A DNA stretch of 33,913 nucleotides from Patescibacteria group bacterium. GTDB lineage: Bacteria; Patescibacteriota; Minisyncoccia; Phycocordibacterales; GWA1-40-21. The stretch lies in NCBI GenBank assembly GCA_038078215.1, contig JBBUED010000003.1, forward strand, positions 8,099 through 42,011, read 5' to 3'. A program made the translations under genes and the position numbers. Below the pieces are notes generated by a model. That model saw nothing but the letters and a program-made list of their open reading frames with translations. It was not told where the DNA came from and ran no database searches. This document shows, piece by piece, positions 3,285 through 33,913 of this stretch; positions within the stretch are counted from its first letter, which is position 1; the number at the start of each line of letters is the position of its first letter.

Positions 3285-5828
3285 ATGATGTTTAAGAACG
3301 CAATGCGTAAAAAGAGGCATTTAAAATTTTGGAGAAAGTTTATTAAAAATGCGGTAATAATAGCAACCGCCTTGTTTTTGTTCGCTGTGAGCGCCCTTGT
3401 CTACTGGGTGTCCACATTTCAAATCCCCGACCTCGGCTCGTTTGAGAAAAGGAAGGTCATACAGTCAACAAAAATTTACGACAGAACCGGCAAAATACTT
3501 CTTTACGACCTGCATCAGGACATAAAAAGAACAGTCGTTCCCATTGAAGAAATTTCCAGGAACATCAAAAATGCGACGGTGGCGATTGAGGATGAGGAAT
3601 TTTATCAACATAAAGGAATAAAGATTACTTCCATAATAAGAGCGGTCTTGGCCAACCTCACCAAAGGAAGCTACAGCCAAGGGGGATCCACAATCACCCA
3701 ACAAGTGGTGAAAAACTCGCTTCTGAACTCTGAAAAGAAAATTTCCAGAAAGTTAAAAGAATGGTTCCTTGCCTTAAAATTGGAAAAAATGATGAGCAAA
3801 GATGAAATTCTCGGAATTTATCTGAATGAAGCGCCTTACGGAGGTTATATATACGGCATAGAAGAGGCTAGCCAGGCTTACTTCGGCAAAAATGCTTCGG
3901 ACTTAACGATCGCCGAATCAGCGCATTTGGCGGCGCTCCCGAACGCGCCGACTTATTATTCTCCTTATGGTCCGAACGCGAAAAAACTGATAGACAGGAA
4001 AAATTTGGTTTTAAAAAAAATGCTTGACAAAAACTTCATCTCAAAAGATGAATATGATTTGGCAATGAAAGATGTCGTTTCTTTTTATCCGCAAGATAGA
4101 TTAGGCATTAAAGCTCCTCACTTTGTCGCCTATACAATAAAATATCTGGAAAATAAATATGGCAAAAAAACGGTTGAAGAAGGCGGTTTGAAAGTGACAA
4201 CAACGTTGGATTACGGCCTGCAGCAGAAAGCCGAAGAAATCGTTAAAAAATTCTCACTGGAGAACAAACAGAAATTCAATGCTGGGAACGCGGCGCTTGC
4301 GGCCATTGACCCGAAAACCGGACAGATATTGGTTATGGTCGGATCAAGGGATTATTTTGACAAAGAGATTGACGGAAACTTCAATGTCACCACCGCGCAC
4401 AGACAGCCGGGGTCAGCTTTCAAACCTTTTGTCTACGCGGCCTCTTTTAATAAAGGATTCACGCCGGAGACGGTATTGTTTGATTTGCCTACGGAATTTC
4501 AAGCGGGTTGCGACCCTAAAGGAACGCCCACAACAACACCGGTAGCCGAAACAAAAGATTGTTATATGCCGCAAAATTACGATAATCTTTTTGTCGGACC
4601 TATAACACTAAGAAACGCTTTGGCGCAATCAAGAAACGTTCCGTCCGTCAAACTGCTCTATCTTACCGGAATAAAAGATTCTTTGCGGTTGGCGAAAGAT
4701 ATGGGGATAGAAGATTTGGGCGGCGCCAACCAATACGGATTGTCGCTTGTTTTGGGGGGCGGGGAGGTCTCTCTGCTTGATATAACGAATGCGTACGGAG
4801 TATTCGCAAACAACGGGGTAAGAAACCCTAAAACGGGCATTATTGAAGTAAATGACAAAGACGGTAAAATTCTTGAAAAATTTGAGCTTAAAAATACCGA
4901 GGCGATGCCGGAAGAAACGGCTTTAAAAATTTCCGACATCTTATCTGACAATGCGGCTAGAACGCCTCTCTACGGAAACAGGTCGCTTTTGTATTTTGAA
5001 AACAGAGATGTGGCGGTAAAAACGGGAACGACGAATGATTATAGGGATGCTTGGACGGTCGGCTACTCGCCTAATATCGCGGTGGGAGCGTGGGTCGGTA
5101 ACAACGACAACAGTCCTATGGAAAAAAAGGTTGCCGGACTTATCGTAACGCCGATGTGGCGCGCTTTTATGGATGAGGTGTTGGCGACGTTGCCGAAAGA
5201 AAAATTTAAAAGGCCGGCGCAAACAGTCGCGAGTGATTTAAAACCTGTATTTAGGGGAATATGGAAAGGCGGTGAATCCTATTTTACGGACAAAATATCG
5301 GGGAAACTGGCGACAAACGAAACGCCGAAAGAAATGCTTAAGGAAAACACGATAACCAACACTCATTCCATTTTATACTGGGTTGATAAAACAGACATAC
5401 TGAACAAAAACAAACCTTTAAATCCGGAAAGCGACCCCCAGTTTATAAACTGGGAATATCCGATACAGGAATGGCTTAAAGGTCAAAATTTACCGAAAGA
5501 TACCGCCAAGCCGGCGGAGTTTGACGATGTCCACACTGGGAAAAACAAGCCTAAAATAAAAATTATAGAACCGTCTCCAGACAAAGAATACGGCAAGGAC
5601 GAAAGAGTTATTGTTAAAATAACAAGTTCTGGGAATTATCCTTTATTAAAAACCGAATATATTATAAATGGAGAATATATAGGATCATCAACCAAATCTC
5701 CGTTTGAATTCGTCTTGACGCCGGATGACATTAAAAATATCAAAAAAAACAATGAGCTCCGGGTCGTCGGTTACGATACCGTATTAAACAAAAATGAAGA
5801 CACGGTTAATTTTAAAATTAAAATATAA
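3285..5828 (+). CDS. Class A penicillin-binding protein (bifunctional glycosyltransferase/transpeptidase) with a C-terminal beta-rich extension
   Basis: GT51 motifs EDEEFYQHKGI, GGSTITQQ and RKLKEWFLALKLE; transpeptidase motifs SAFKP (SxxK), SRN and KTGTT; N-terminal TM helix. The track ORF starts at GTG 3231; ATG 3285 (MMFKNAMRKKRH...) is preferred but uncertain. Confidence 0.9.
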   Translation: MMFKNAMRKKRHLKFWRKFIKNAVIIATALFLFAVSALVYWVSTFQIPDLGSFEKRKVIQSTKIYDRTGKILLYDLHQDIKRTVVPIEEISRNIKNATVAIEDEEFYQHKGIKITSIIRAVLANLTKGSYSQGGSTITQQVVKNSLLNSEKKISRKLKEWFLALKLEKMMSKDEILGIYLNEAPYGGYIYGIEEASQAYFGKNASDLTIAESAHLAALPNAPTYYSPYGPNAKKLIDRKNLVLKKMLDKNFISKDEYDLAMKDVVSFYPQDRLGIKAPHFVAYTIKYLENKYGKKTVEEGGLKVTTTLDYGLQQKAEEIVKKFSLENKQKFNAGNAALAAIDPKTGQILVMVGSRDYFDKEIDGNFNVTTAHRQPGSAFKPFVYAASFNKGFTPETVLFDLPTEFQAGCDPKGTPTTTPVAETKDCYMPQNYDNLFVGPITLRNALAQSRNVPSVKLLYLTGIKDSLRLAKDMGIEDLGGANQYGLSLVLGGGEVSLLDITNAYGVFANNGVRNPKTGIIEVNDKDGKILEKFELKNTEAMPEETALKISDILSDNAARTPLYGNRSLLYFENRDVAVKTGTTNDYRDAWTVGYSPNIAVGAWVGNNDNSPMEKKVAGLIVTPMWRAFMDEVLATLPKEKFKRPAQTVASDLKPVFRGIWKGGESYFTDKISGKLATNETPKEMLKENTITNTHSILYWVDKTDILNKNKPLNPESDPQFINWEYPIQEWLKGQNLPKDTAKPAEFDDVHTGKNKPKIKIIEPSPDKEYGKDERVIVKITSSGNYPLLKTEYIINGEYIGSSTKSPFEFVLTPDDIKNIKKNNELRVVGYDTVLNKNEDTVNFKIKI

Positions 5829-5842
5829 AACTTTTTATAGCC

Positions 5843-6094
5843 TTAAAAAATACCCTTAACGGCAATATTTTTTGCGTTCAGTTCTTTTATAATACCGACT
5901 TTGTTTATAAACACCTCATTTCTAACAACAGGATTGACTTTTAAATAAATTACTCCGTTTTTTATTTCCACATCCTTTTTGTTGATATTAATTTTTAAAA
6001 TATTACCAACAGAATCAGTGATGATATTTTTCAAAACGGAGTTTTTTGACTCAATATTTTTAAATTTATCCAGATATATTGATATGTTGAACAT
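5843..6094 (-). CDS. Small DUF721/DciA-like protein (83 aa), tentative
   Basis: Starts 4 nt after the dnaN stop, in the same operon. The pattern NGVIYLKVNPVVRNEVFINKVGIIKELN resembles the DUF721 core (G-L-x-V-x-V ... EL ... I ... LN), and proximity to dnaN is typical for that family. Confidence 0.4.
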   Translation of the reverse strand: MFNISIYLDKFKNIESKNSVLKNIITDSVGNILKININKKDVEIKNGVIYLKVNPVVRNEVFINKVGIIKELNAKNIAVKGIF

Positions 6095-6098
6095 GAGG

Positions 6099-7199
6099 CT
6101 ATTTATTCATCGGCATAACTATATAAGTAAAAGACTTGTCTGAAACGCCGCGGATTGTCATTGGTTTGGAAATACCATTAAAAGACAAAGAAATGCTGTC
6201 AGAATCAATAGACTGCAAGCAGTCTATGATGTATTTATAATTAAAATTAACGCTTATGTCTTCGCCGGACAAACTGGCGGGAACAGTGTTGATATTTTCG
6301 CCGATATTGGAATTTTTGGTTGTAATCTCAAAAACTTTTTTTGAGGGGAATACTTTAACGTTAACTTGATTGAATTTATCCGAAAAAATATTTGATATTT
6401 TTAATACGGACAACAAATCTTGCTTTAAAACAATCGCTTCTGTTTTGGTTTCGTTTGGAATAATTTGTTTATAATCGGGGAAAACTCCGTCAATCAATCT
6501 GGATACGATGTAATTTTCATTATTAGAAAAAGAAATTTGGTTTTTAGACAAACACACATCAACATCGCCGTTAATTTCTTCAAAAATCCTTGTTATTTCG
6601 GGTATGTTTTTAAGCGGTATTAGAATATTAAAAGAATTATTATCTTTTTCTATTTTTATCCTTTTTTCAGCCAAACGAAAAGAGTCGGTCGCGACAAAAA
6701 TCAAATCATTGTCAATTGTGTAAACATAAACACTTGATAATTCAGGTTTAACACTGGAAAGCGACGAACTAAACCAAACAGCTTTGAAACCTTTGATTAG
6801 TTTTTTTGAATCCAAACCAAAAGATATTCCATCGGAAACCTTTGGTATAGTCGGAAAATCATCAAATGGATGTGATTTTATCAAAGTCTTGCTATGTTCT
6901 GTTCTTATTTGAAGGTTACCGTCAATACTCTCAAGAACAACATTTTTGTCACTTTGAATGTTTGAAATTAAATTATTAATAACAGAACCCGGAACAGCCA
7001 CAATTCCTTCTTTTATTGTTTTTATAGGTATGGTTGATTCTATCCCAAGATCAGTGTTGGTAGCCTTCACTTTTAAAGTGTTGTTTTTAACCTCCAATAA
7101 CAAACAAGATAGTATAGGAAGAGTTAAATTTTTACCGGTAACTTTTTCTGTTCTGGAAATTATTTGTTGTAACTTATCTTTGGTACACTCTGCTTTCAT
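6099..7199 (-). CDS. dnaN: DNA polymerase III beta sliding clamp
   Basis: 366 aa, immediately downstream of dnaA. The N-terminus (...LTLPILSCLLLEV) and C-terminus (FTYIVMPMN) are typical of beta clamps. Confidence 0.9.
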   Translation of the reverse strand: MKAECTKDKLQQIISRTEKVTGKNLTLPILSCLLLEVKNNTLKVKATNTDLGIESTIPIKTIKEGIVAVPGSVINNLISNIQSDKNVVLESIDGNLQIRTEHSKTLIKSHPFDDFPTIPKVSDGISFGLDSKKLIKGFKAVWFSSSLSSVKPELSSVYVYTIDNDLIFVATDSFRLAEKRIKIEKDNNSFNILIPLKNIPEITRIFEEINGDVDVCLSKNQISFSNNENYIVSRLIDGVFPDYKQIIPNETKTEAIVLKQDLLSVLKISNIFSDKFNQVNVKVFPSKKVFEITTKNSNIGENINTVPASLSGEDISVNFNYKYIIDCLQSIDSDSISLSFNGISKPMTIRGVSDKSFTYIVMPMNK

Positions 7200-7434: not shown

Positions 7435-8781
7435 TCACAACATTCCTCTTATTTGATTTATTTCTTTATTTAAAATTAAATCAGTTTTAATATCATTTTT
7501 TATTTTTTCATATGAATGAATAACCGTCGTGTGGTCTCTCCCTCCCAGTTTCTCGCCTATTGATGGGTATGATATGTTAAAATCTTCCCTTAAAATATAC
7601 ATAATTATCTGTCTTGGTTTAACAACTTCTTTTTTTCTTGTTTTTTTATACACAATATCATCTTCTAAATTATAAAAATCAGAAATAATTTTAATCACTT
7701 CTTTTACAGAAATTAATTTTTTAGGCTTAATATTGTTTTTTATGAGGTTTTTAATCTCATTAAGGTTCATTTCTTTGTTTTTAAGTTGGGTTTGACAAAG
7801 TATTGAGTTTAAAACACCCTCAAGTTCTCTAATATTTCCCTCAATTGAGGAGGCCAAATACTCTATTGTTTCCATAGGCAACGTCAGGTTTGAGTTTAAG
7901 GACTTTTTCTTTAATATTTGAATTCTTGATTCTATGTCTGGTGCCGGAATTTCAACAATCATACCGGCGTTAAATCTTGATTTTACGCGCTCTTCCAGTC
8001 CTTGTATGAAATTCGGATGCTTATCTGATGAAAACACCAGTTGTTTATTGTTGTCTTGCAGGGCGTTAAAAAGATGGAAAAATTCCTCTTGTATTTTTTG
8101 TTTGCTGGCAAAAAATTGTATATCATCAATTATTAAAAGGTCGTATTTTCTATACTGTTCCTTGAAAAGATTAACCTTTCCGTTGTTTAAAGAGTTTATG
8201 TATTCTTGCGCGAATTTATCGGATGTTAGATAAAAAACCTTCTTTTCCTTGTTGTTTGTTTTCGCGTAATTCCCTATCGCTTGTATTAGGTGTGTTTTCC
8301 CGTGCCCTGTGTTTCCGTATATAAACAACGGATTATAAACAGCAGTTTTTTTGATTATCGCTTGGGACGCGGCGTGAGCGAGATCGTTAAACGGACCAAC
8401 GATAAAAGAATCAAATGTGTAGCGGGGGTTCAAATTATCTTCTTTGTTGATGTAAAAATCTTGAAGCGGCAATTCATTTATTGTTTGGGCGACGACAGGG
8501 CGACCGCCGGCCTCCCCTCTTTTTATCGGTGTCTCCTTTGATACTAAATACTCAACACCTCTTACGTAATCGGCAAAACCTCTCAAACTTTTTAAAATCT
8601 GTTTGTGGTATTTATTATTCAACCAATCTTTCACAAAAACACTGGGAACGCTCAAATAAACAACCCCATCTTCTTGTTTTACGACAAGCGTGTCTTTGAA
8701 CCACATGCTGAAATTAGCCTTAGAGATGTTAAGTTCAATCTCAACCAAGACGTTGTCCCAAAGTTTTTTGTTTTCTACCAT
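7435..8781 (-). CDS. dnaA: Chromosomal replication initiator DnaA
   Basis: Walker A GNTGHGKTHL, Walker B LLIIDDIQF, and the C-terminal DNA-binding domain (IGEKLGGRDHTTVIHSYEKI). Confidence 0.95.
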   Translation of the reverse strand: MVENKKLWDNVLVEIELNISKANFSMWFKDTLVVKQEDGVVYLSVPSVFVKDWLNNKYHKQILKSLRGFADYVRGVEYLVSKETPIKRGEAGGRPVVAQTINELPLQDFYINKEDNLNPRYTFDSFIVGPFNDLAHAASQAIIKKTAVYNPLFIYGNTGHGKTHLIQAIGNYAKTNNKEKKVFYLTSDKFAQEYINSLNNGKVNLFKEQYRKYDLLIIDDIQFFASKQKIQEEFFHLFNALQDNNKQLVFSSDKHPNFIQGLEERVKSRFNAGMIVEIPAPDIESRIQILKKKSLNSNLTLPMETIEYLASSIEGNIRELEGVLNSILCQTQLKNKEMNLNEIKNLIKNNIKPKKLISVKEVIKIISDFYNLEDDIVYKKTRKKEVVKPRQIIMYILREDFNISYPSIGEKLGGRDHTTVIHSYEKIKNDIKTDLILNKEINQIRGML

Positions 8782-8874
8782 ATATAAAGTTTATGATAGT
8801 CCAAGTATATACCTTAATTATAATTATAAAACTTGCTAAATAAGTGTCATTGTGTTTATAATTTGTTTATAACT

Positions 8875-8883
8875 TGTGGATTA
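8875..8883 (-). promoter_or_regulatory. DnaA-box-like 9-mer (TAATCCACA) in the dnaA-rpmH divergent spacer
   Basis: Plus strand tgtggatta; 1 mismatch to the consensus. Confidence 0.3.
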
Positions 8884-8928
8884 TTAAATTATTTTAAATT
8901 TTTAATTATATTTATCATATAAAACATT

Positions 8929-9063
8929 ATGTCTTTCACTTACAATCCTAAAAAAGGAAAAAGATTAAAAACTCACGGCTTTTTGGTCAGACAAAAAACA
9001 AAAGGAGGAAAAAATACAATAAAAAGAAGAAGGCAGAAAGGCAGAAGAAAAATAACTGTCTAA
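8929..9063 (+). CDS. rpmH: 50S ribosomal protein L34
   Basis: 44-aa ORF not in the track: MSFTYNPKKGKRLKTHGFLVRQKTKGGKNTIKRRRQKGRRKITV. It shows the L34 signature (KRxxxHGF..R) and the classic position divergent from dnaA and upstream of rnpA. Confidence 0.9.
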   Translation: MSFTYNPKKGKRLKTHGFLVRQKTKGGKNTIKRRRQKGRRKITV

Positions 9064-9077
9064 TTCGCCAGTTTCTT

Positions 9078-9419
9078 ATGTTGAAAAAGAAAAATAAGGT
9101 TAACACGGCTCTGTTTAAGGTTGTTATCAAGAAAGGGTCTAGTTATTTTAGCCAAAACATTTCTCTAAAAATCATCAAAATGGCGGATACGGAGCATAAA
9201 TTTGGGGTCTCTGTTTCAAAAAAAGAGCTAAAAACGGCGGTAAAAAGAAACTTGTTGAAAAGAAGGGTGTTGTCAATCCTGCAAAAAATTGAGCCGAAAA
9301 TCAGCGCCGGCTTTGGTTGCGTCTTTTTTTTAAAAAAGGGAGCGCTGGATATTCCCTATCAAGCGCTTCTAGACGAAATTCTTTTTTTGTTAAAAAAAGC
9401 AAATTTGATTAGATTATAG
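9078..9419 (+). CDS. rnpA: Ribonuclease P protein component
   Basis: Basic 113-aa protein directly after rpmH; RNR-like motif AVKRNLLKRRVLSIL. Confidence 0.7.
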   Translation: MLKKKNKVNTALFKVVIKKGSSYFSQNISLKIIKMADTEHKFGVSVSKKELKTAVKRNLLKRRVLSILQKIEPKISAGFGCVFFLKKGALDIPYQALLDEILFLLKKANLIRL

Positions 9420-9540
9420 TTTATAGTGGTTAGCGGTTAGACAAAAAGACAGTAATAATTATTTAATTCCTAATTGATCTAATTTCTAATCAAATCCCAA
9501 TTTCTAAACCTAAAACCTATAAATTAAAACCTAACCCGCC
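9417..9540. repeat. GGTTAG/CCTAA-type inverted low-complexity repeats in the rnpA-yidC spacer
   Basis: G-rich arm tagtttatagtggttagcggttagac (9417-9442) and C-rich arm ctaaacctaaaacctataaattaaaacctaacccgcc (9504-9540). Confidence 0.5.
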
Positions 9541-9585
9541 GATTTTGGCTTGGTGACAAATTTATGTATAATATAATTTTAAAAA

Positions 9586-10332
9586 ATGTCATATTTATTT
9601 AATTTATTTTTCTATGAACCTCTGTATAACGGGTTAATTTTCTTGATAGGCGTTCTCCCTTGGGCTGACATTGGTATTGTGGTTGTTCTTTTTACCTGCA
9701 TAGTGAAGCTAATACTCTTTCCTCTTTCCAAGAAGTCCGTGCTGACTCAAATCAGGATGAAGGAGATTCAACCGGAGCTGGACGCCATAAAAGAAAAGCA
9801 CAAAGAAAACAAACAAGAACAAGCTTTGAAAGTGATGGCTTTATATAAGGAGAGGAAAATCAACCCTTTTTCCGGAATACTGCTCATATTTATTCAAATC
9901 CCGATAATTTTCGCTCTGTACTTCGTCTTTTTAAAAGGAGGGTTGCCGGAAATAAAAAATGATTTGCTCTATTCTTTTGTTAAAATTCCATCATCAATAG
10001 ACATTTCATTTCTGGGTTTTTTGGATATAACTCAAAAAAGCTACTTAATGGCTTTTATGGCTGCCATAACTCAATTTTTTCAGGTTAAATTGGCTATACC
10101 CAAAACCAAAAAAACAAATCCGAATCAAAGTTCGTTCAAAGACGATTTGGCCAAAAGCATGAGCCTTCAGATGAAGTACATTCTTCCTGTCATAATATTT
10201 TTTATAGCAAGAGGTTTGCCGGCGGTCGTGGCTTTGTATTGGGCGACAAGCAATCTTTTTACCATTGGACAAGAGTTGTATCTAAGAAGGACGAGGAAAA
10301 ATATAATAACAGAGGCAGGGGCTAGGTTATAG
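9586..10332 (+). CDS. yidC: Membrane protein insertase YidC (short form)
   Basis: 248 aa, multi-TM, following rpmH-rnpA. YidC/Oxa1-like segments: PLSKKSVLTQIRMKEIQPEL..., KINPFSGILLIFIQIPIIFALY and PAVVALYWATSNLFTIGQ. Confidence 0.85.
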   Translation: MSYLFNLFFYEPLYNGLIFLIGVLPWADIGIVVVLFTCIVKLILFPLSKKSVLTQIRMKEIQPELDAIKEKHKENKQEQALKVMALYKERKINPFSGILLIFIQIPIIFALYFVFLKGGLPEIKNDLLYSFVKIPSSIDISFLGFLDITQKSYLMAFMAAITQFFQVKLAIPKTKKTNPNQSSFKDDLAKSMSLQMKYILPVIIFFIARGLPAVVALYWATSNLFTIGQELYLRRTRKNIITEAGARL

Positions 10333-26722: not shown

Positions 26723-28675
26723 TTATAAATCCATATAAATTATTTTCTCTCTGTATTCAAAACTTTTTTCCTCTTCAATGAATTCGGCATCTATGTCGGA
26801 GAGAAATTGAGACGGGCTATTGAGCTGAAGCGAGCCGAAAATCGTTCTTGTTTTGGCGTAAGAAAGAAAAAGTTTTTTCTTGGCTCTTGTTATCGCCACA
26901 TAAAACAAACGCCTCTCCTCCTCGGAATCCTCAACGCTTGGTCGGATACTCCCGATCCTTTGGTGGGGGAAAAGATCCTCTTCCAGTCCGGAAACGAAAA
27001 TATAATCAAATTCCAGCCCTTTGGAAGCGTGAACCGTCATCATTTTTACCGCTCCGCTCTCTTTTTCAAGGGAATCCTGGTCGGTTGACAGAGCTGATTC
27101 TTCAATCAGTTTTTCAACGCCCTCGCCATAAGGAAGATAATCATATTTTTTCGCCATTGTCGCGAGTTCCATCATGTTTTCCAGCCTTTCTTTGTCGTCA
27201 TCGCTTCCGTTTTTGAGCTCGTCTTCGGTTCCGCTTTCTTTGATAATAAATCTAATAATTTTCGAGGGTTTTAACAAGAGAACATTTTCTTTTATCTTAT
27301 CAAGAAGTCCGTAAAAATTAGCAACTTTAATCTTAGTCCCCGCCGGCAATTCCGACTCTCTGCCGGCGAATATCTTGGCGATAGTCACCTTTCCCAGACC
27401 TCTCGTCGGAAAATTTATTATCCTTTTTATATCGCTCAAACTGTCCCTGTTTAAAGCGGCGCGAAGATAAGAAAGAGTGTCTTTAACTTCTTTTCTCTCA
27501 AAGAATTTGACGCCGAGAAGCTGGTAAGGAAGATTAAGATTTAGAAAAGCTTCTTCAATGACTCGGGATTGGAAGTTAGCCCTATAAAGAATAGCGATGT
27601 CTTTGGGCGCTACTCCGTCCGCGATAAGGCTTTTGATTTTCTCCGCGATAAAACGCGCCTCCTCATTTTCATTATGAGCTTCAAAGAGAGTTACCTTATC
27701 GCCCTCTTTGTTTTTGGTGAACAGATTTTTCTTTCGCCTCATTGTGTTTTTCTCTATAATTCCATTCGCCACCGCGAGTATCGTTTGAGTGGAGCGGTAA
27801 TTTTCTTCCAAAATTATCGCTTTGGCTTCAGGATAATCTTTTTCAAAATTCAAAATATTTTGAATGTCCGCTCCTCTCCAGCCGTAGATATTTTGGTCAA
27901 TGTCGCCGACGGCGCAGATGTTCCTATTTTTTGCCGCGAGTAGGCGGACTATCTCGTATTGAGCTTTGTTGGTGTCTTGATATTCGTCAATGTGAATGTA
28001 TTGCCACAAATCTTGATAATAGGCCAAAATTCCACTATTTTTGCGGAGAAGTCTGTAAGTTTTCAGCAACAAATCGTCAAAATCCAGCGATTTTTCTTGT
28101 GACAGCCTTTTCTCATAAAGCGTCCAGACTTGAGCCGCGACTTTGTTAAGAGAATACCCTTTGAAAGCGTTTGCTCTTTCCAAATAATTTTCAACGGATG
28201 TCAGACATCCTTTTTCTCTTGAAATTATCCCCAAAATTTTTGACGGTTCAAATTGCTTAGAGTCAATGTCTAGCTCCTTGAGTATTTCTTTGACCGCCTT
28301 CAGCGAATCTCCCTTGTCAAAAATGGTGAAGTGCCTCGGAATGCCCAACTCCCGGCTGTTTTCTTTGATAATGCGGACGCCCAAAGAGTGAAAAGTGCTC
28401 ACGAAAGGAGTTTCGTTTCCGGAAATTGACAACTTCGCCAACGGACTTGAATCTAAAAGATGATTTACTCTTTCCCTCATTTCTTTCGCCGCTTTATTGG
28501 TAAAGGTAATCGCCAGTATCTGGCGAGGCGCAACCCCTTCGCTCACAAGATGGAAAATTCTATGCGTAATCGTCTTAGTCTTCCCTGAACCCGCTCCGGC
28601 GAGAATGAGCAATGGTCCATTTTTATGAAGCACTGTTTCTTTTTGTTTTTCATTGAGACCTTTTAAATAATCCAT
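26723..28675 (-). CDS. pcrA: UvrD/PcrA-type ATP-dependent DNA helicase
   Basis: GAGSGKT (Walker A), DEYQDTN, ENYRST, and VHASKGLEFD...YVAITRAKKKL motifs. Confidence 0.9.
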   Translation of the reverse strand: MDYLKGLNEKQKETVLHKNGPLLILAGAGSGKTKTITHRIFHLVSEGVAPRQILAITFTNKAAKEMRERVNHLLDSSPLAKLSISGNETPFVSTFHSLGVRIIKENSRELGIPRHFTIFDKGDSLKAVKEILKELDIDSKQFEPSKILGIISREKGCLTSVENYLERANAFKGYSLNKVAAQVWTLYEKRLSQEKSLDFDDLLLKTYRLLRKNSGILAYYQDLWQYIHIDEYQDTNKAQYEIVRLLAAKNRNICAVGDIDQNIYGWRGADIQNILNFEKDYPEAKAIILEENYRSTQTILAVANGIIEKNTMRRKKNLFTKNKEGDKVTLFEAHNENEEARFIAEKIKSLIADGVAPKDIAILYRANFQSRVIEEAFLNLNLPYQLLGVKFFERKEVKDTLSYLRAALNRDSLSDIKRIINFPTRGLGKVTIAKIFAGRESELPAGTKIKVANFYGLLDKIKENVLLLKPSKIIRFIIKESGTEDELKNGSDDDKERLENMMELATMAKKYDYLPYGEGVEKLIEESALSTDQDSLEKESGAVKMMTVHASKGLEFDYIFVSGLEEDLFPHQRIGSIRPSVEDSEEERRLFYVAITRAKKKLFLSYAKTRTIFGSLQLNSPSQFLSDIDAEFIEEEKSFEYREKIIYMDL

Positions 28676-29241: not shown

Positions 29242-30222
29242 TTGGTATTGCTAGGCCTCCCCGCCATAGCCGATGCCAGCATGGCTTCCTTTTTTTCAAA
29301 TATGTTCGCTGGCGAAGAGGTCAAATCGGAAGCGTTGTTGGCGGAAACAAATTCCCAAAATATATCCTTGCTCCAAGCTGTGCCGAATTCGGATCCTAAC
29401 GCGGCAAAAGGAGGAGGAGATATCATTATTGTCGGAGACGAAGCTTTGCTTTCTGAAATAGGACCTTCCGGCACCACTGCCGACATAGAAGAGGGCTTCT
29501 CTGACGGCAAGATAGAGACTTATGTGGTCAAAAAAGGCGACTCTCTTTCCACTATAGCTAATATGTTCAGGGTATCCGCGAACACGATAATTTGGGCGAA
29601 TGACGTAAAAAACTCAACAATAAAAGAAGGCGACACCCTTATCATTTTGCCGATTTCAGGCGTTAAATATAAAGTTAGATCCGGAGACACTCTGAAAAGT
29701 ATAGCGATAAAATACAAAGGTGATATTGATGAGGTGCTTCAATACAATAATCTGGATATTAATTCCGCTCTTGCCGTTGGGCAGGAAATCATTATTCCAA
29801 ACGGTCAAATTGACCTTCAGGCAAAAAGCGCCAAAAACCTAAATTCAAAAATACGCGGAGCAAGCGGTCCTTCTTATGCCGGATATTATATTCGTCCGAT
29901 TGAAGGCGGGAGAAAAAGCCAAGGTCTTCACGGCTGGAACGCCGTTGATTTGGCGGCTCCATTAGGAACGCCGATATCCGCCGCCGCTTCCGGTGAAGTC
30001 ATTATAAGCAAAAATTACGGCTGGAACGGGGGTTATGGAAATTATGTTGTCATAGAGCATCCAAACAAAACTCAAACCGTGTACGGCCATATGTCCAAAA
30101 ACATTTCTTATCCAGGTCAATATGTTGAGCAAGGACAGATAATAGGCAGTGTCGGCTCAACCGGCAGGTCCACAGGTCCCCATGTCCATTTTGAAATCCG
30201 CGGCGCAAAGAATCCGTTTTAA
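29242..30222 (+). CDS. LysM-domain M23 family metallopeptidase (cell-wall hydrolase)
   Basis: Two LysM domains (YVVKKGDSLSTIANMF...GDTLIILP; YKVRSGDTLKSIAIKY...GQEIIIP). M23 motifs HGWNAVD, GNYVVIEH and GPHVHFEI. The track start is TTG 29242 and the true start is uncertain (see findings). Confidence 0.85.
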   Translation: MVLLGLPAIADASMASFFSNMFAGEEVKSEALLAETNSQNISLLQAVPNSDPNAAKGGGDIIIVGDEALLSEIGPSGTTADIEEGFSDGKIETYVVKKGDSLSTIANMFRVSANTIIWANDVKNSTIKEGDTLIILPISGVKYKVRSGDTLKSIAIKYKGDIDEVLQYNNLDINSALAVGQEIIIPNGQIDLQAKSAKNLNSKIRGASGPSYAGYYIRPIEGGRKSQGLHGWNAVDLAAPLGTPISAAASGEVIISKNYGWNGGYGNYVVIEHPNKTQTVYGHMSKNISYPGQYVEQGQIIGSVGSTGRSTGPHVHFEIRGAKNPF

Positions 30223-30293
30223 TATCTAAAATTTGCTCAACCTATTTATAGAATTAATCAAAATAATCATTGCCGTATAGGCTTAAAACAAAA

Positions 30294-31067
30294 CTATATA
30301 TTTTCATTTTTAACATATAGAGGACTGGAAATGCCCCAAACAATTTTGATAAATAACTTAAAAACATTCACTAGTTCTTGATTTTCTATCACAAAAGCGT
30401 AGTTTTCCTTTTTGGAAGAGATGACTCCAAACTTGTTATCGTAAATGACGACGACAACGCCGAAATTATTGCCTTCCGGCAAAACTCTCGCCTCTCTTAA
30501 CGGATCGTTGTATTTATAGCCCGCTGAATCTTCGGCGTTTATAATGGAATAACTTTTAATCCCTTTCTCATTTCTCCGTTTGATGAATTTTTGCCAGTAG
30601 CTTTGCGGATATAAGTCTTCCAACAGTTTTATAGAGCCCAAATACCAATACTCTTTGCTTTTGCAGTTAAGCGCCTCTTCCATAATTCCTTTTATCTCCT
30701 CTCGGCCTTGGAACAATCTGACTTTCGGCTTATTAAAGCCTTTATCGCCAAAATGGTATGTGGCGGAAGCAATTAATTTTTCCACGAGCTTTTTGGTGGC
30801 GTCTAGCTCCTCCTCCTTGTTTGTTTCAATTTTTTTCAAACGCTCCGGCTCGGCGGGAACAAACAATTTTCTTTTGCCCCGTATAGTGGTTTCCACGAAG
30901 CCGAAATTCTTTAATTTTTCCAATAAGTGATACAAAGATGTCCTTTTAAGGCCTGATAGTTTAGCCAGCTCCGTAATGCTTACGGGAGCGTTCTCAATTA
31001 TAGCTTCGTAAAGGCTAGTTTCTTTTTGGCTAAAACCCAGTTTCAATAAATATTTTTCCAGTTCCAT
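30294..31067 (-). CDS. TrmB family transcriptional regulator (wHTH plus C-terminal TrmB-like domain)
   Basis: MELEKYLLKLGFSQKETSLYEAIIENAPVSITELAKLSGLKRTSLYHLLEKLKNFGFV is a typical TrmB N-terminal wHTH. Start placed at ATG 31067 because the longer track ORF would run into its own promoter. Confidence 0.7.
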   Translation of the reverse strand: MELEKYLLKLGFSQKETSLYEAIIENAPVSITELAKLSGLKRTSLYHLLEKLKNFGFVETTIRGKRKLFVPAEPERLKKIETNKEEELDATKKLVEKLIASATYHFGDKGFNKPKVRLFQGREEIKGIMEEALNCKSKEYWYLGSIKLLEDLYPQSYWQKFIKRRNEKGIKSYSIINAEDSAGYKYNDPLREARVLPEGNNFGVVVVIYDNKFGVISSKKENYAFVIENQELVNVFKLFIKIVWGISSPLYVKNENI

Positions 31068-31074
31068 AATTTGT

Positions 31075-31104
31075 ATTATAGCAAATGACGACCACATTCG
31101 TCAA
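31075..31104 (-). promoter_or_regulatory. Promoter of the TrmB-like gene, apparently leaderless
   Basis: The minus strand reads TTGACG-N18-TATAAT-N7-ATG (plus-strand cgtcaa 31099-31104, attata 31075-31080, start codon 31067-31065). Confidence 0.55.
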
Positions 31105-31173
31105 ATTATTTATATGAATAACTGCTTTAAAATAACATTTTATCGCCAACAAAGCCATATTTGACTTAATTAG

Positions 31174-31202
31174 TTGACATTTGTATTAAATTAAGTTATT
31201 GT
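31174..31202 (+). promoter_or_regulatory. Promoter of the two-gene cassette
   Basis: TTGACA (31174-31179) - 17 nt - TATTGT (31197-31202). Confidence 0.5.
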
Positions 31203-31212
31203 TTGGCTAGAT

Positions 31213-31236
31213 GAATTTCAATGGGAAATTCAATGG
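31213..31236 (+). promoter_or_regulatory. Tandem 12-mer direct repeat (candidate operator) between promoter and RBS
   Basis: gaatttcaatgg gaaattcaatgg, two adjacent copies differing at one position. Confidence 0.45.
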
Positions 31237-31276
31237 ATAGTTGTTTGACAATAAATTTTATTGGAGGGGACTATTT

Positions 31277-32152
31277 ATGGATCTGTCTTATTTGTTAGAC
31301 AAAGAAGGTTCTTTGTCTAAATTAGATGAATTGAAAAAGTATGCCGATGCGGCAGATGAATGTTTTGTTTTCACATTAGAAAAGCTTTTATTTGTTGACT
31401 GGAAAGATGAATGTAAAAAAAGGTCCAAAATTGGTTACGGGTCTCAGTGCCTTCGTTATCTTAATGTGTTGCTTCGTATGGAGAGCAAATTTATTTCGAA
31501 TCAAAGATTAAAAAACTTTGATTTAAGATTGGGTTTTGGACATCATGGCTTCCCTTCTCTTGGTTCTTGGCAAGCAGACATTGATTTCATTAAGAAAAAC
31601 AGAAAAGGAAAGTATTATTGTGATTACTGGGATTGTGTGGATAGGGAAAAATTGTACGAGATAAAAATAAAAGAAAAAGGAAATTGCCTTTGTTTTATGC
31701 CAAACAATCTGGAGGTTTGCTTTTCTTATTCAAAGGAAAGATTTGCAATGACTGATTATTCGAATTTTTGTTTAATAGTTTTGAAAAAAAACGCATTGCA
31801 AAAAGATCCTAATTACTTTGAAAGAGCTGGGGCTCCTAAAAACTTTTATCATTATGGAGGTTCTTTTGGTTTACGTGGTATGGATTCTTTAGATTATTGG
31901 GAAAAGGTAGGTCCTAGTGGCAACACTCGTTTATGGATGAGAGGGAGAGATTATCCTGACTTAGTTTGGTTTTTTATGTCTGGAAAACTGAGTTTTTCTG
32001 CTATTTTAACCTTATCCCCAGAGGAGCTAGAAGAATATCACTATCTTGTGATAAAAATTGAAGGAAGAAAAGAAAATGAAACAGTTGATGACGTCTGTCA
32101 TTATGTTTCTTCAGAAAAAATTAACTATCTTGTTAATGAGCATGTATTCTAA
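31277..32152 (+). CDS. Hypothetical protein (291 aa), soluble, Cys/Trp/His/Tyr-rich, no recognised family
   Basis: Strong RBS ggagggg 8 nt upstream of ATG 31277 (the track ORF starts at TTG 31241). No TM or signal peptide. Motifs: GFGHHGFPSLGSWQ, CDYWDC, HYGGSFGLRGMDSLDYWEK. Confidence 0.6.
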   Translation: MDLSYLLDKEGSLSKLDELKKYADAADECFVFTLEKLLFVDWKDECKKRSKIGYGSQCLRYLNVLLRMESKFISNQRLKNFDLRLGFGHHGFPSLGSWQADIDFIKKNRKGKYYCDYWDCVDREKLYEIKIKEKGNCLCFMPNNLEVCFSYSKERFAMTDYSNFCLIVLKKNALQKDPNYFERAGAPKNFYHYGGSFGLRGMDSLDYWEKVGPSGNTRLWMRGRDYPDLVWFFMSGKLSFSAILTLSPEELEEYHYLVIKIEGRKENETVDDVCHYVSSEKINYLVNEHVF

Positions 32153-32189
32153 ATTATATTCACAATTCACAATTGAGAGGAAATGAAAA

Positions 32190-33050
32190 ATGGTAAATAC
32201 ATTAACGACACAAATTAAACCTGACAAAAAAACAATCACATCAACAAACAGGATGAGAGAGGGTTTGGAAATAACTAGGGATGCCAAAAAAAATTTTGAC
32301 AAGTTAGACTTGGAAATTTCCAAATTAATTAACGCCATTCAAAAAAAGCATGGGTTCATGAGTCTTTTCTCAAAAAAATCATCTCAGGAAAATCGCGAAA
32401 AGGCTTTCACTCGGCTTGACTGTCATTACAGGGAGTCTTATTTGAAAACTCAAACAGGCCTTGAAACAATAGCGGAAAGTGTTCAAGAAATTCTCTCTTC
32501 TCACCAAGAAGAGGCAGAAAAACTTGAAGAACTAAAGAAGAAAGAGGAGGAAGGAATAATAACTCTTGATGACTACAGAAAGGTATTCTCTGGTATGACC
32601 TGTTTGCCAGTGTTGGGGATAAATGATACCGCTTTGGAAAAACTTTCACCGGGAATTGTTTCGGAATCAAAGAAACAATTCAAAGAAACTCTTCAAAAGA
32701 ACATCATCCAAAAAACCGAGATGTTAAATCTTCTCGGAACAATGTTCGGGGTTGTCGTGGTTTACAGAGACACGGCTCTAAGAAATTATTCTTCTTATCA
32801 CGTTGTTTCAAACCCAATTAAGGCTTTGACTGGTTCCGCATCGGCTATTCAGCACACAGAAACAGAATCAAAAACGATGTCGGAGTTTCTAATCTTAGCA
32901 CTAGAGACAAGTGTCAACGTAGTAGACCGCGTGCTTTGTGGGCGGGAAGAAAGGGGTCAGATTGAAGAAAAAATGACCGCTTCCATAACAGAAGCGGGTC
33001 AGAAATTAAAAGAAGCCCTTGAAAAATTCAGTTGTTCCTCAAAACAATAA
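32190..33050 (+). CDS. Hypothetical alpha-helical/coiled-coil protein (286 aa); faint TelA/KlaA-like pattern, very tentative
   Basis: RBS gagagga upstream; predicted to be helical throughout. KKHGFMSLFSKKSS...HYRES...LETIAESV loosely recalls the TelA N-terminal region. One hydrophobic segment (LLGTMFGVVVVY). Followed by a strong terminator. Confidence 0.55.
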   Translation: MVNTLTTQIKPDKKTITSTNRMREGLEITRDAKKNFDKLDLEISKLINAIQKKHGFMSLFSKKSSQENREKAFTRLDCHYRESYLKTQTGLETIAESVQEILSSHQEEAEKLEELKKKEEEGIITLDDYRKVFSGMTCLPVLGINDTALEKLSPGIVSESKKQFKETLQKNIIQKTEMLNLLGTMFGVVVVYRDTALRNYSSYHVVSNPIKALTGSASAIQHTETESKTMSEFLILALETSVNVVDRVLCGREERGQIEEKMTASITEAGQKLKEALEKFSCSSKQ

Positions 33051-33076
33051 GATTTTTGAAAGGAAAAAAAACGCAA

Positions 33077-33116
33077 GAAGGGTAGAATTTTTTAATTCTA
33101 CCCTTCATTTTTTGCT
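33077..33116. terminator. Bidirectional intrinsic terminator
   Basis: 13-bp stem gaagggtagaatt / aattctacccttc with a tttt loop, followed by attttttg on the plus strand and a T-run on the minus strand. It lies between convergent genes. Confidence 0.7.
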
Positions 33117-33180
33117 CAAACCCTACTTCGGCCGGTATGGCAACGCCTTAAAGAGGTAATTTTTTTCTATGTTTTCGTTT

Positions 33181-33438
33181 CTATTCGTAAATATCGTGAT
33201 TGCCGATTGCATAAAACCTGACGGTTTCATTGTCAATAAATTCAAAAATAATTCTATATTTGTAGTTTACAGAGAAAGACCAAAAATCATCCAGCGCGCC
33301 GTGTAACTTATGGGCATTAAGGCGAGGGTCAAAATTATTCACCCTAAAAATTTCTTCTTTTTTACAAGCGAGATTCTTTATCTTGGTCGGTAAATTTTTA
33401 TATTCTTTCTTAAATTTAGGGTGGTAAATAATTTTCAT
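33181..33438 (-). CDS. RelE/ParE superfamily type II toxin
   Basis: 85 aa; KYRIIFEFIDNETVRFYAIGNHDIY is the typical C-terminal pattern. It lies 11 nt downstream of an RHH antitoxin gene. Confidence 0.8.
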   Translation of the reverse strand: MKIIYHPKFKKEYKNLPTKIKNLACKKEEIFRVNNFDPRLNAHKLHGALDDFWSFSVNYKYRIIFEFIDNETVRFYAIGNHDIYE

Positions 33439-33449
33439 TATATTTTACC

Positions 33450-33665
33450 CTACATCAAGTCTTTTAACGATTTAAGAATTTTCCCCTTGCCTTTATCGAA
33501 ATCTTTTCGGCGGCTTTTTAATTCTTCGGCCAATTTGCGGGTATTCCATAATCGTATCATATGCCTGACAAACTCGCTTTTTGTGGCAAATTTGCCGGTT
33601 TTCACCTCTTTTTCCACAAAGTCCGCCATATTTTTCGGCAACGAAATGTTTATTACGCTTCTCAT
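33450..33665 (-). CDS. ParD/CopG-like ribbon-helix-helix antitoxin
   Basis: MRSVINISLPKNMADFVEKEVKTGKFATKSEFVRHMIRLW (beta strand then helix-helix; ParD-like). Start moved from 33737 to ATG 33665, because the longer ORF would read through the operator palindrome. Confidence 0.75.
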   Translation of the reverse strand: MRSVINISLPKNMADFVEKEVKTGKFATKSEFVRHMIRLWNTRKLAEELKSRRKDFDKGKGKILKSLKDLM

Positions 33666-33677
33666 GTTTTTATTTAT

Positions 33678-33712
33678 TATATAGGTGTAATACAAAGTAT
33701 TACACCTATATA
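33678..33712. promoter_or_regulatory. 16-bp-arm perfect palindrome overlapping the TA promoter (probable autoregulatory operator)
   Basis: tatataggtgtaatac-aaa-gtattacacctatata. The minus-strand TATAAT lies within it, 13 nt upstream of the antitoxin ATG. Confidence 0.55.
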
Positions 33713-33740
33713 ATAATCCATATCGCGCAAAAGTCAAAAA

Positions 33741-33913
33741 CTAAACAGCCATCTTTTTCGGCCGGTATTGCAGGGCTTCTAGGATATGATTGGTTTCTAT
33801 TTCTTCGGAGTCGGCGAGGTCGGCTATTGTTCTCGCAAGTTTGATGACGCGATGATACGCCCGAGCCGATAGGTCCAATTTTTCCGCTGACTTGTTTAAT
33901 ATTTCTTTGACTT
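33741..33913 (-). CDS. comM: C-terminal end of a YifB/ComM Mg-chelatase-like ATPase (partial; continues beyond the window)
   Basis: The minus strand translates to [72 protein letters not shown]....I....EA..YR is the conserved ComM C-terminus. Not in the track because the fragment has no start codon. Confidence 0.75.

Follow-up and report, generated by a model that had tools for sequence, protein, structure and literature searches.

Patescibacteria (the candidate phyla radiation, CPR) have tiny genomes, and most of their strain-specific genes are without known function. A pair of such genes lies towards the end of a 33,913-nucleotide stretch (the window) from a metagenome-assembled genome (MAG) of a Patescibacteria group bacterium, where gene 1 and gene 2, both on the forward strand, are divergent from a gene for a TrmB-like regulator. 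The question raised by this locus is what kind of unit the cassette is—a horizontally acquired module, as a first-pass annotation of the window proposed, or something more deeply rooted in the genome—and what its two proteins may do. The window corresponds to positions 8099-42011 of contig C3, and the MAG as a whole comprises 478 kb in 44 contigs (81% complete, 41.1% GC). From 30294 to 33913 the order is TrmB-like regulator (minus strand), gene 1, gene 2, a terminator, RelE/HigB-like and ribbon-helix-helix (RHH) genes (minus strand), and the 3′ end of a comM-like gene; 209 bp separate the regulator from gene 1, and 37 nt separate gene 1 from gene 2. The cassette sits between a LysM-M23 peptidase gene and comM. 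Both of the predicted open reading frames (ORFs) are present (Table 1), the cassette is a complete bicistronic operon, and its description as a regulated two-gene module without a known family holds. The comparisons below point to a polymorphic site that is anchored by the regulator and holds the cassette as one of at least four alternative cargos; its borders are the conserved regulator with its leader and, at the far end, a comM-side terminator. To this explanation as a whole, with the mechanism proposed further on, we assign a probability of roughly 60%.

Cargo types at the regulator-anchored site

The segment 26000-33913 is matched by three independent Hainich H52 assemblies (10-28x coverage), one identical over the whole segment (100%), a second identical over approximately 30169-33913 (100%), and the third at 99.94%, and this agreement shows that the arrangement was not created in assembly. 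In a comparison with contig L046 over 7.9 kb only five differences were seen, all within 24 nt of pcrA (27320-27343), a cluster that may reflect a short tract of recombination or variation between strains.

The regulator's 90%-identity cluster, which has 27 members, was surveyed for what occupies the cassette position beside them; the related contigs bear the label "Patescibacteria group bacterium" or were recovered from Hainich groundwater. Four types of cargo were found. Type A is the present pair (the window, L046-L048 and L001-L003), and type B is a diverged homologous pair (G001, L030, L031, L033, L035, L036 and L049). Type C is a single unrelated ORF of 370 aa (L050 and L051), and type D is a Cys-rich ORF of 62 aa with two CxxCxxxPCVCE repeats that was left uncalled by the source (L052-L054). 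Neither type C nor type D matches the profiles of gene 1 and gene 2, and searches of Pfam and PADLOC with them were likewise negative. The type D ORF of L052 (approximately 3505-3693, minus strand) has a near-perfect Shine-Dalgarno (SD) sequence, AAAGGAGGTGA, and its repeats resemble a zinc ribbon; the 128-aa call made by the source on the opposite strand is spurious.

The four types have their borders in common. When the regulatory regions are aligned, identity is 85% per column over about 200 bp and homology ends at the SD, which is present in all four cargo types; at the other border, every cargo stops a few tens of bases short of a terminator hairpin. The same GGGTAGA...TCTACCC hairpin is found in types A, C and D and in the type B loci L030 and L031, with the comM 3′ end following it. 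The strong promoter and strong terminator noted by the first-pass annotation are both real and both kept in relatives. The regulator protein is 88-93% identical across loci with four different cargos, its ratio of non-synonymous to synonymous substitution rates (dN/dS) is 0.03-0.09, and its synonymous divergence is similar to the values for pcrA and the M23 peptidase gene on its flank. The variable unit is only the stretch from SD to terminator, exchanged or replaced among relatives.

The same-genus genome G001 (JAGXAA01) illustrates how sharply conservation changes along the locus. Its order is pcrA, LysM-M23 peptidase, TrmB-like regulator, gene 1′, gene 2′, RelE and RHH, and protein identity with the window is 93% for pcrA, 91% for the regulator and 42% for gene 2′; of gene 1′ no more than a motif of 19 aa (F..GFPSxGSWxAD) is recognisable, located at the matching residue position. 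Genes 1 and 2 occur together in every type A or type B locus that spans both positions.

Nucleotide relatedness of the regulators does not track cargo type. The regulator of L030 (type B) is nearest to that of L052 (type D), at 91%, and the regulator of the window (type A) is nearest to that of L050 (type C), at 90%. L030 and L031 have type B cargos that are about 99% identical beside regulators that are only 86% identical; within the intergenic region the identity of the two contigs rises abruptly, from 78-90% to about 100%, with the exception of a 200-nt patch of gene 1 at 82-88%. The incongruence of cargo with regulator, together with this near-identical cargo beside diverged regulators, indicates that cargos have been exchanged between lineages. 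Types A, B and C are all from Hainich wells, and all three were found in well H41.

The module is not universal even among close relatives. In the same-genus genome G003, with a pcrA 90% identical to that of the window, the interval between comM and the M23 gene contains neither regulator nor cassette and is occupied by about 1 kb of other small SD-led ORFs. On L042 (G003:C6) these small ORFs are at 8670-9743, one of them with a strong SD (AAGGAG), and some 2 kb from the interval there is an integrase/transposase-like ORF of 419 aa (5257-6516). Absent from this syntenic site and unfound in about 400 genomes of the order, the cassette module is accessory. There is no recombinase or mobility ORF between pcrA and comM in any locus (a whole-genome integrase screen was not made), and no duplicated gene ends were found bracketing the TrmB-plus-cargo unit; only the RelE/RHH insertion, discussed below, has them.

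Control region and translation signals

The divergent gene belongs to the TrmB family, as first annotated: its N-terminal winged helix matches PF01978 (47.4 bits, cut-off 25.6; E 1.8e-12), and its C-terminal domain matches PF11495 marginally (23.6 bits against 22.2, E 3.5e-5). Scores with the NCBIfam TrmB equivalog models are far under the cut-offs, and no solved structure for the regulator was found by sequence. Its GC content is the same as that of gene 2. The −10 hexamer of its promoter, a promoter whose sequence is conserved in relatives, ends 7 nt before the ATG at 31067, so that the regulator mRNA is probably leaderless. Overlapping the −35 hexamer is the palindrome TGACGA-N6-TCGTCA, which occurs once in the genome; its arms are invariant in five aligned loci and the spacer alone varies. 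Among paralogous TrmB loci, where the regulators likewise face single divergent cargos, four of five have an inverted repeat of the TTGTCA/TGACAA type with a spacer of 3-7 nt at the equivalent position. Judged from these alignments, the palindrome is the best candidate for a TrmB operator.

The cargo promoter TTGACA-17-TATTGT is kept across cargo types A-D. Downstream of it the first-pass annotation placed a candidate operator in a tandem 12-mer (31213-31236); the tandem exists, but the feature conserved across relatives is an inverted repeat, TGAATTTC-N5-GAAATTCA, positioned roughly at +3 to +23 in the predicted transcript. All 55 cells of the alignment (100%) are paired, with three compensatory double changes and one G-U wobble, its covariation score was reached by none of 500 shuffles, and the hairpin is predicted in 4/4 folds. 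The predicted helix-turn-helix segment of the regulator, KRTSLYHLLEKL, is identical in the compared loci, and an RNA hairpin is favoured because this segment stays the same while the arms change in concert and a G-U state occurs. The hairpin geometry and the location downstream of the promoter also fit operators of the TrmBL1 type (TATCAC-N5-GTGATA; PMC4706686), and the element could be a 5′-terminal RNA hairpin, an operator, or both.

The leader is about 55 nt long and consists of this 5′ hairpin and an invariant TTTGACAA box, ending at the SD. The box in its full extent, AATGGATAGTTGTTTGACAAT, is near-invariant and is the most conserved intergenic stretch in eight loci. A second promoter at the TTGACA box of the leader was considered and rejected, direct reading of the sequence giving no −10 hexamer at a usable spacing. 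None of the regulatory motifs (palindrome, hairpin, leader box) has another occurrence in the MAG, and an Rfam scan of 30900-33300 returned nothing near a gathering score (best 32.5 bits against 60). Folding predictions pair the leader box with the SD and the region of the start codon (31233-31279; minimum free energy −19.5 kcal/mol, z = −3.06), an interaction seen in type A alone that would mask the ribosome-binding site and is not kept in type B.

The use of SD sequences was surveyed with a crude ORF-based set of 417 genes, with 81% of the genome covered. The genome is SD-poor, as the first-pass annotation had stated: 77% of starts are without even a 4-mer match to the SD core, compared with 72% of internal control positions, and a match of at least 6 nt is found at 20 of 412 starts (4.9%) versus 1.1% of controls. 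The genes of this SD-using minority are AT-richer (mean GC 0.383 vs 0.419, p = 7e-4) and shorter (median 150 vs 247 aa, p = 6e-5) than the others. Most are hypothetical or secreted-looking (for example C8:2585-2953, C14:4796-5773 and C28:11418-12236), and many share an upstream context of AAATTTT, 3-6 nt, and AAGGAG. A check of the anti-SD yielded nothing, the 16S 3′ end not being found in the MAG or in four relatives. Of the two SDs attributed to the cassette, that of gene 1 (GGAGGGG) is confirmed, whereas GAGAGGA before gene 2 shares no more than 4 nt with the SD core, a match expected by chance; in this position relatives of types A and B have AAGGAG or GGGAG.

The start codons of both genes are supported by homologues, which conserve both N-termini. 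Alternative starts for gene 1, at TTG 31241 or as the 224-aa database call, are unsupported by the homologue alignment, and ATG 31277 is supported. The public record of gene 1 is this 224-aa product beginning at Met68, a call that looks wrong. Type B gene 2 (L033/L034, 8001-8867) is similarly annotated 26 codons short (288 vs 314 aa), and the longer N-terminus is conserved between types.

Composition separates the two genes. Gene 1 has a GC content of 33.0% (2.6th percentile of genomic windows) and third-position GC (GC3) of 0.275 (2nd percentile), and gene 2 a GC content of 38.2% (about the 22nd percentile) with GC3 at the 17th percentile. The claim that the cassette is AT-rich is therefore accurate for gene 1, an outlier, and does not extend to gene 2, which is ordinary.

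Table 1. Coordinates of features at the locus, as positions in the window.
Feature	Position	Strand	Basis or remark
TrmB-like regulator, 257 aa	30294..31067	-	Pfam; conserved anchor of the site
Regulator promoter TTGACG-18-TATAAT with TG extension	31075..31104	-	11/12 matches
Palindrome TGACGA-N6-TCGTCA	31086..31103	.	Candidate TrmB operator
Cargo promoter TTGACA-17-TATTGT	31174..31202	+	Sigma-70-like, 10/12 matches
8-bp inverted repeat with 5-nt loop, TGAATTTC-AATGG-GAAATTCA	31212..31232	+	Covariation, folds
Leader box AATGGATAGTTGTTTGACAAT, with TGACAA half-site	31232..31252	+	Alignment of 8 loci
Gene 1 SD GGAGGGG, 7 nt before ATG	31263..31269	+	
Gene 1, 291 aa, soluble Cys/Trp-rich orphan	31277..32152	+	
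Gene 2 weak SD GAGAGGA, 8 nt before ATG	32175..32181	+	
Gene 2, 286 aa, soluble, predicted all-helical orphan	32190..33050	+	
Bidirectional intrinsic terminator, 13-bp stem, T-runs on both sides	33077..33116	.	3′ edge of the cargo site
Duplicated comM 3′-end fragment	33120..33180	-	Left edge of the RelE/RHH insertion
RelE/HigB-like toxin (33181-33438) and RHH antitoxin (33450-33665)	33181..33665	-	Pfam; independent insertion
comM 3′ end (Mg-chelatase-like)	33741..33913	-	Conserved right flank of the site

Two proteins outside described families

Each of the two proteins was searched widely, and both lie outside any described family. Pfam, NCBIfam, PADLOC and PHROG have no match for either protein or for diverged members of their families, and profile searches of the PDB gave no match that survived a check, in agreement with the first-pass annotation, which recognised no family. 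A PDB match to NapA/Dps (E 0.0023), obtained with a mixed type A and B alignment, was reproduced by neither type-specific profile and for that reason is taken as a forced-alignment artefact; matches to neoleukin and Nuf2 were coiled-coil noise. A word-indexed search of 5.8 billion proteins identified three relatives of protein 1 and two of protein 2, and a two-type profile run against the same 5.8 billion proteins identified six relatives of protein 2. When the protein 1 alignment was used as a profile to search 1.84 billion representatives exhaustively, it recovered only its own family and one weak match, P0011 (E 1.7e-4), which is a eukaryote-like immunoglobulin-repeat protein and spurious. 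Outside the genus, 41 relatives and 401 genomes of the order yielded nothing credible in profile searches. There is no tblastn match in 50,697 phage records, and a phage origin was rejected on this ground and for want of a meaningful PHROG match.

Protein 1 was described by the first-pass annotation as soluble and rich in Cys, His and Trp. It has 3.4% Cys (98.6th percentile; the proteome value is 0.67%) and 2.1% Trp (90th percentile), and its His content is unexceptional (73rd percentile). Neither protein contains a hydrophobic segment of transmembrane length, in line with solubility, nor one suggesting a signal peptide or membrane anchor. Protein 2 is predicted by AlphaFold2 to be all-helical, the sole usable information from the models. 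A TelA-like N-terminal pattern had been suspected in protein 2 and was not borne out: PF05816 gives no match with four proteins of the gene 2 family (P0002, P0008, P0013, P0015) and none in the genome, and hhalign against three Patescibacteria TelA proteins gave a probability of 0.3%. Protein 2 resembles that toxic-anion-resistance family only in the all-helical prediction and a similar length. A role of the cassette as target of a diversity-generating retroelement was also rejected; the genome has no second cassette copy or template, and substitutions in the variable patch are not adenine-specific.

Two motifs recur in the pair, GFPSxGSWxAD in the N-terminal ~130 aa of gene 1, common to types A and B, and the conserved LPVLGxxDxxxEKLSPG. 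The type B genes share an overlap of 35 nt, and gene 2 starts within the codons of the conserved C-terminal "GGENA" of gene 1; this overlap suggests translational coupling and a protein complex.

Rates of evolution were compared with the type B loci L030, L031, L035, L036, L033 and L049 and the type A loci L001-L003. Gene 1 diverges faster than gene 2 throughout (40% vs 80%, 63% vs 81%, and about 20% vs 43% identity). Its dN/dS is 0.24-0.35, rising to 0.64-0.72 in the closest pairs, compared with 0.12-0.19 for gene 2 and 0.03 for pcrA. Sliding windows along type B gene 1 give ratios of non-synonymous to synonymous differences (pN/pS) of 1.4-1.9. No spanning locus has either ORF disrupted, so the pair can be taken as functional, if weakly constrained.

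Possible roles and origins of the cassette

A mechanism can be proposed in which a dimer of the TrmB-like protein binds the TGACGA-N6-TCGTCA palindrome, and possibly the leader too, and keeps the cargo promoter off until a small ligand occupies its C-terminal domain. Translation of the SD-led ORFs, which are closely spaced or overlap, would then yield the two proteins together, and they would act as a complex, with protein 1 as a rapidly changing specificity subunit and protein 2 as its better conserved helical partner; exchange of cargos would probably proceed by homologous recombination through the conserved flanks. As to function, the role that we judge most likely, at somewhat under even odds, is one in conflict or interaction (defence against phage, competition among strains or interaction with a host), because several cargo alleles share one aquifer, because cargos turn over, and because of an analogy with BrxR.

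That analogy can be drawn in some detail. BrxR/CapW-type WYL regulators adjoin many different phage-defence systems (PMC9122601, PMC9122589); likewise here a conserved helix-turn-helix regulator with a ligand-sensing domain stands beside unrelated variable cargos, which it probably represses until a signal arrives. The present regulator differs in having a TrmB fold and no WYL domain, and its cargos match no known defence family. In architecture it resembles archaeal TrmB and TrmBL1, with a PF01978 winged helix, a TrmB-type C-terminal domain, and candidate palindromes with a 5-6-nt spacer beside or downstream of promoters; the TrmBL1 operator, termed TGM, is a palindrome of this kind with a 5-nt spacer, and binding of TrmBL1 downstream of promoter elements represses transcription (PMC4706686). 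Unlike those archaeal proteins, the regulator is bacterial, is 257 aa long compared with archaeal models of about 340 aa, and faces orphan targets and not sugar transporters or glycolysis genes. A full-text literature search found no paper joining TrmB with Patescibacteria or "candidate phyla radiation".

Several points weigh against these proposals. It is the position of the TrmB-like gene, and its position only, that suggests regulation of the cargo, and the element at the start of the predicted transcript is ambiguous in that it may be an operator. The evidence for mosaicism comes partly from low-coverage (2-6x) metagenome contigs, which could be chimeric, although the incongruence is seen across several independent sources. 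The searches gave no biochemical or structural clue to cargo function: the pair has no match in PADLOC-DB 2.0 or PHROG and so no support from a defence family, and AlphaFold2 with 3-sequence alignments gave unusable models (pLDDT, the predicted local confidence, 34 and 46). The windows of gene 1 with pN/pS above 1 are not significant (binomial tests, p 0.17-0.45), so positive selection was not accepted and the fast evolution could reflect nothing more than weak constraint.

One alternative is ordinary ligand-responsive physiology, for example nutrient or metabolite handling, with fast evolution arising from weak selection in streamlined genomes and the site serving niche-specific nutrient use. 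We consider this possible, if unlikely. Relatives of the same family (L013, L014, L016, L017, L023 and L025) contain TrmB-like paralogues that are about 30% identical, with up to about 24 candidate matches per genome, and most of these face genes for LivK-type periplasmic binding proteins (PF13458), one converging on such a gene. Archaeal TrmB regulators are sugar sensors (PMC4706686), and the overall dN/dS below 1 for both genes, with the excess of pN/pS non-significant, would suit a physiological role. What fits poorly is that both proteins lack a signal peptide, a transmembrane segment and any enzyme or binding domain that can be recognised, and that the family is confined to one genus. The alternative cargos are moreover mutually unrelated, with three types from the same aquifer, and near-identical cargo occurs beside diverged regulators, as described above.

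The first-pass annotation saw in the cassette a horizontally acquired module, possibly for stress response, defence or toxin-immunity; taken further, this reading would make it a recent island that operates jointly with the adjacent RelE/ParD-type genes. A recent acquisition of this sort would account for the low GC and GC3 of gene 1, for the membership of SD-bearing genes in an AT-rich, short minority, and for the absence of the module at the syntenic site of G003; RelE and RHH genes are indeed downstream of the cassette (Pfam), and this toxin-antitoxin (TA) pair adjoins it in the window, G001, L035 and L050. The pair, however, has a history of its own. It is flanked in the window by two copies of the comM 3′ end (33120-33180 and 33741-33810, in an alignment that includes the comM end of L002), and two Mg_chelatase_C fragments flank the TA pair of G001. 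L002 runs uninterrupted from gene 2 through the terminator to comM with no TA pair. In L031 the pair is absent and a ParA-like gene follows the cassette, and in L052 a ParA-like gene replaces it in a similarly bracketed position (comM end at 3339-3470). The TA pair is accordingly a separate insertion into the comM 3′ end, since duplicated comM ends flank it and L002 is without it, and the idea that it partners the cassette falls away. Copies of the comM 3′ end also bracket a RelE/RHH pair in L008 (9020-9130 and 9680-9790), and the bracketing pattern resembles insertion with a long duplication of the end of the target gene. Nor is the rest of the unit a recent foreign insertion: the regulator and its control region are at the site in all of the many relatives found, with synonymous divergence like that of pcrA and the M23 gene, gene 2 is ordinary in composition, and no mobility gene lies within the locus. 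We regard a recent island as improbable.

Less probable still is a polymorphic toxin-immunity or TA-like system in which gene 1 encodes a toxin with a variable C-terminus and gene 2 its neutraliser. The likeness to such pairs is that, between types A and B, only residues ~8-141 of gene 1 align in hhalign (probability 90%, E 1.7e-6), corresponding to the N-terminal ~130 aa, and the C-terminal half is not alignable; the downstream partner is matched to it by type, and the two genes are closely coupled or overlapping. Gene 2, however, with about 290 aa, is as large as gene 1 and more conserved between types (42% vs about 20%), the opposite of typical immunity proteins, no secretion, trafficking or toxin domain, signal peptide or known toxin fold is present, and types C and D are single genes. 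That the ORFs are non-functional or decaying filler, open by chance, is very improbable, for while known domains are lacking and the dN/dS of gene 1 is high in the closest pairs, the ORFs are intact in all spanning loci, even those only 20-43% identical, dN/dS is 0.12-0.35 at larger distances, and the SD, the gene coupling and both of the motifs given above are conserved.

We return, then, to a polymorphic, regulator-anchored site with exchangeable cargos. Variable hotspots with a conserved regulator are of a known kind. As in such hotspots, defence islands and integron cassettes, unrelated genes alternate here at one site between conserved flanks, several alleles share one habitat, and the cargo is incongruent with the flanks. 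Unlike integron cassettes, the locus has no integrase, attC-like array or transposase and offers a single position and not an array, and the hairpin at its 3′ border is an ordinary terminator shared with comM, not an attC site. What is new is the presence of four cargos behind one leader at one orthologous locus, with the borders of the variable unit sharply defined by SD and terminator.

A broader reading is speculative, and we hold it to be unlikely on present comparisons: that regulator, leader and terminator make up a dedicated plug-in expression site, widespread in Patescibacteria as many paralogous copies and circulating ORF-only cargos that run from SD to terminator, and that the orphan cargos, this pair included, represent novel systems against phage or for interaction with a host, turned on when the regulator senses a signal.

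The locus provides a concrete handle on those strain-specific genes of these bacteria that are without known function, with one regulator and leader serving interchangeable orphan cargos, several of which coexist in the well-studied Hainich aquifer. If such a site is general for conflict or host-interaction genes, it marks where new defence or symbiosis functions may lie, and it would offer testable regulator-target pairs, while its promoter, operator and leader would be a naturally occurring cassette on which genetic tools for Patescibacteria could draw.

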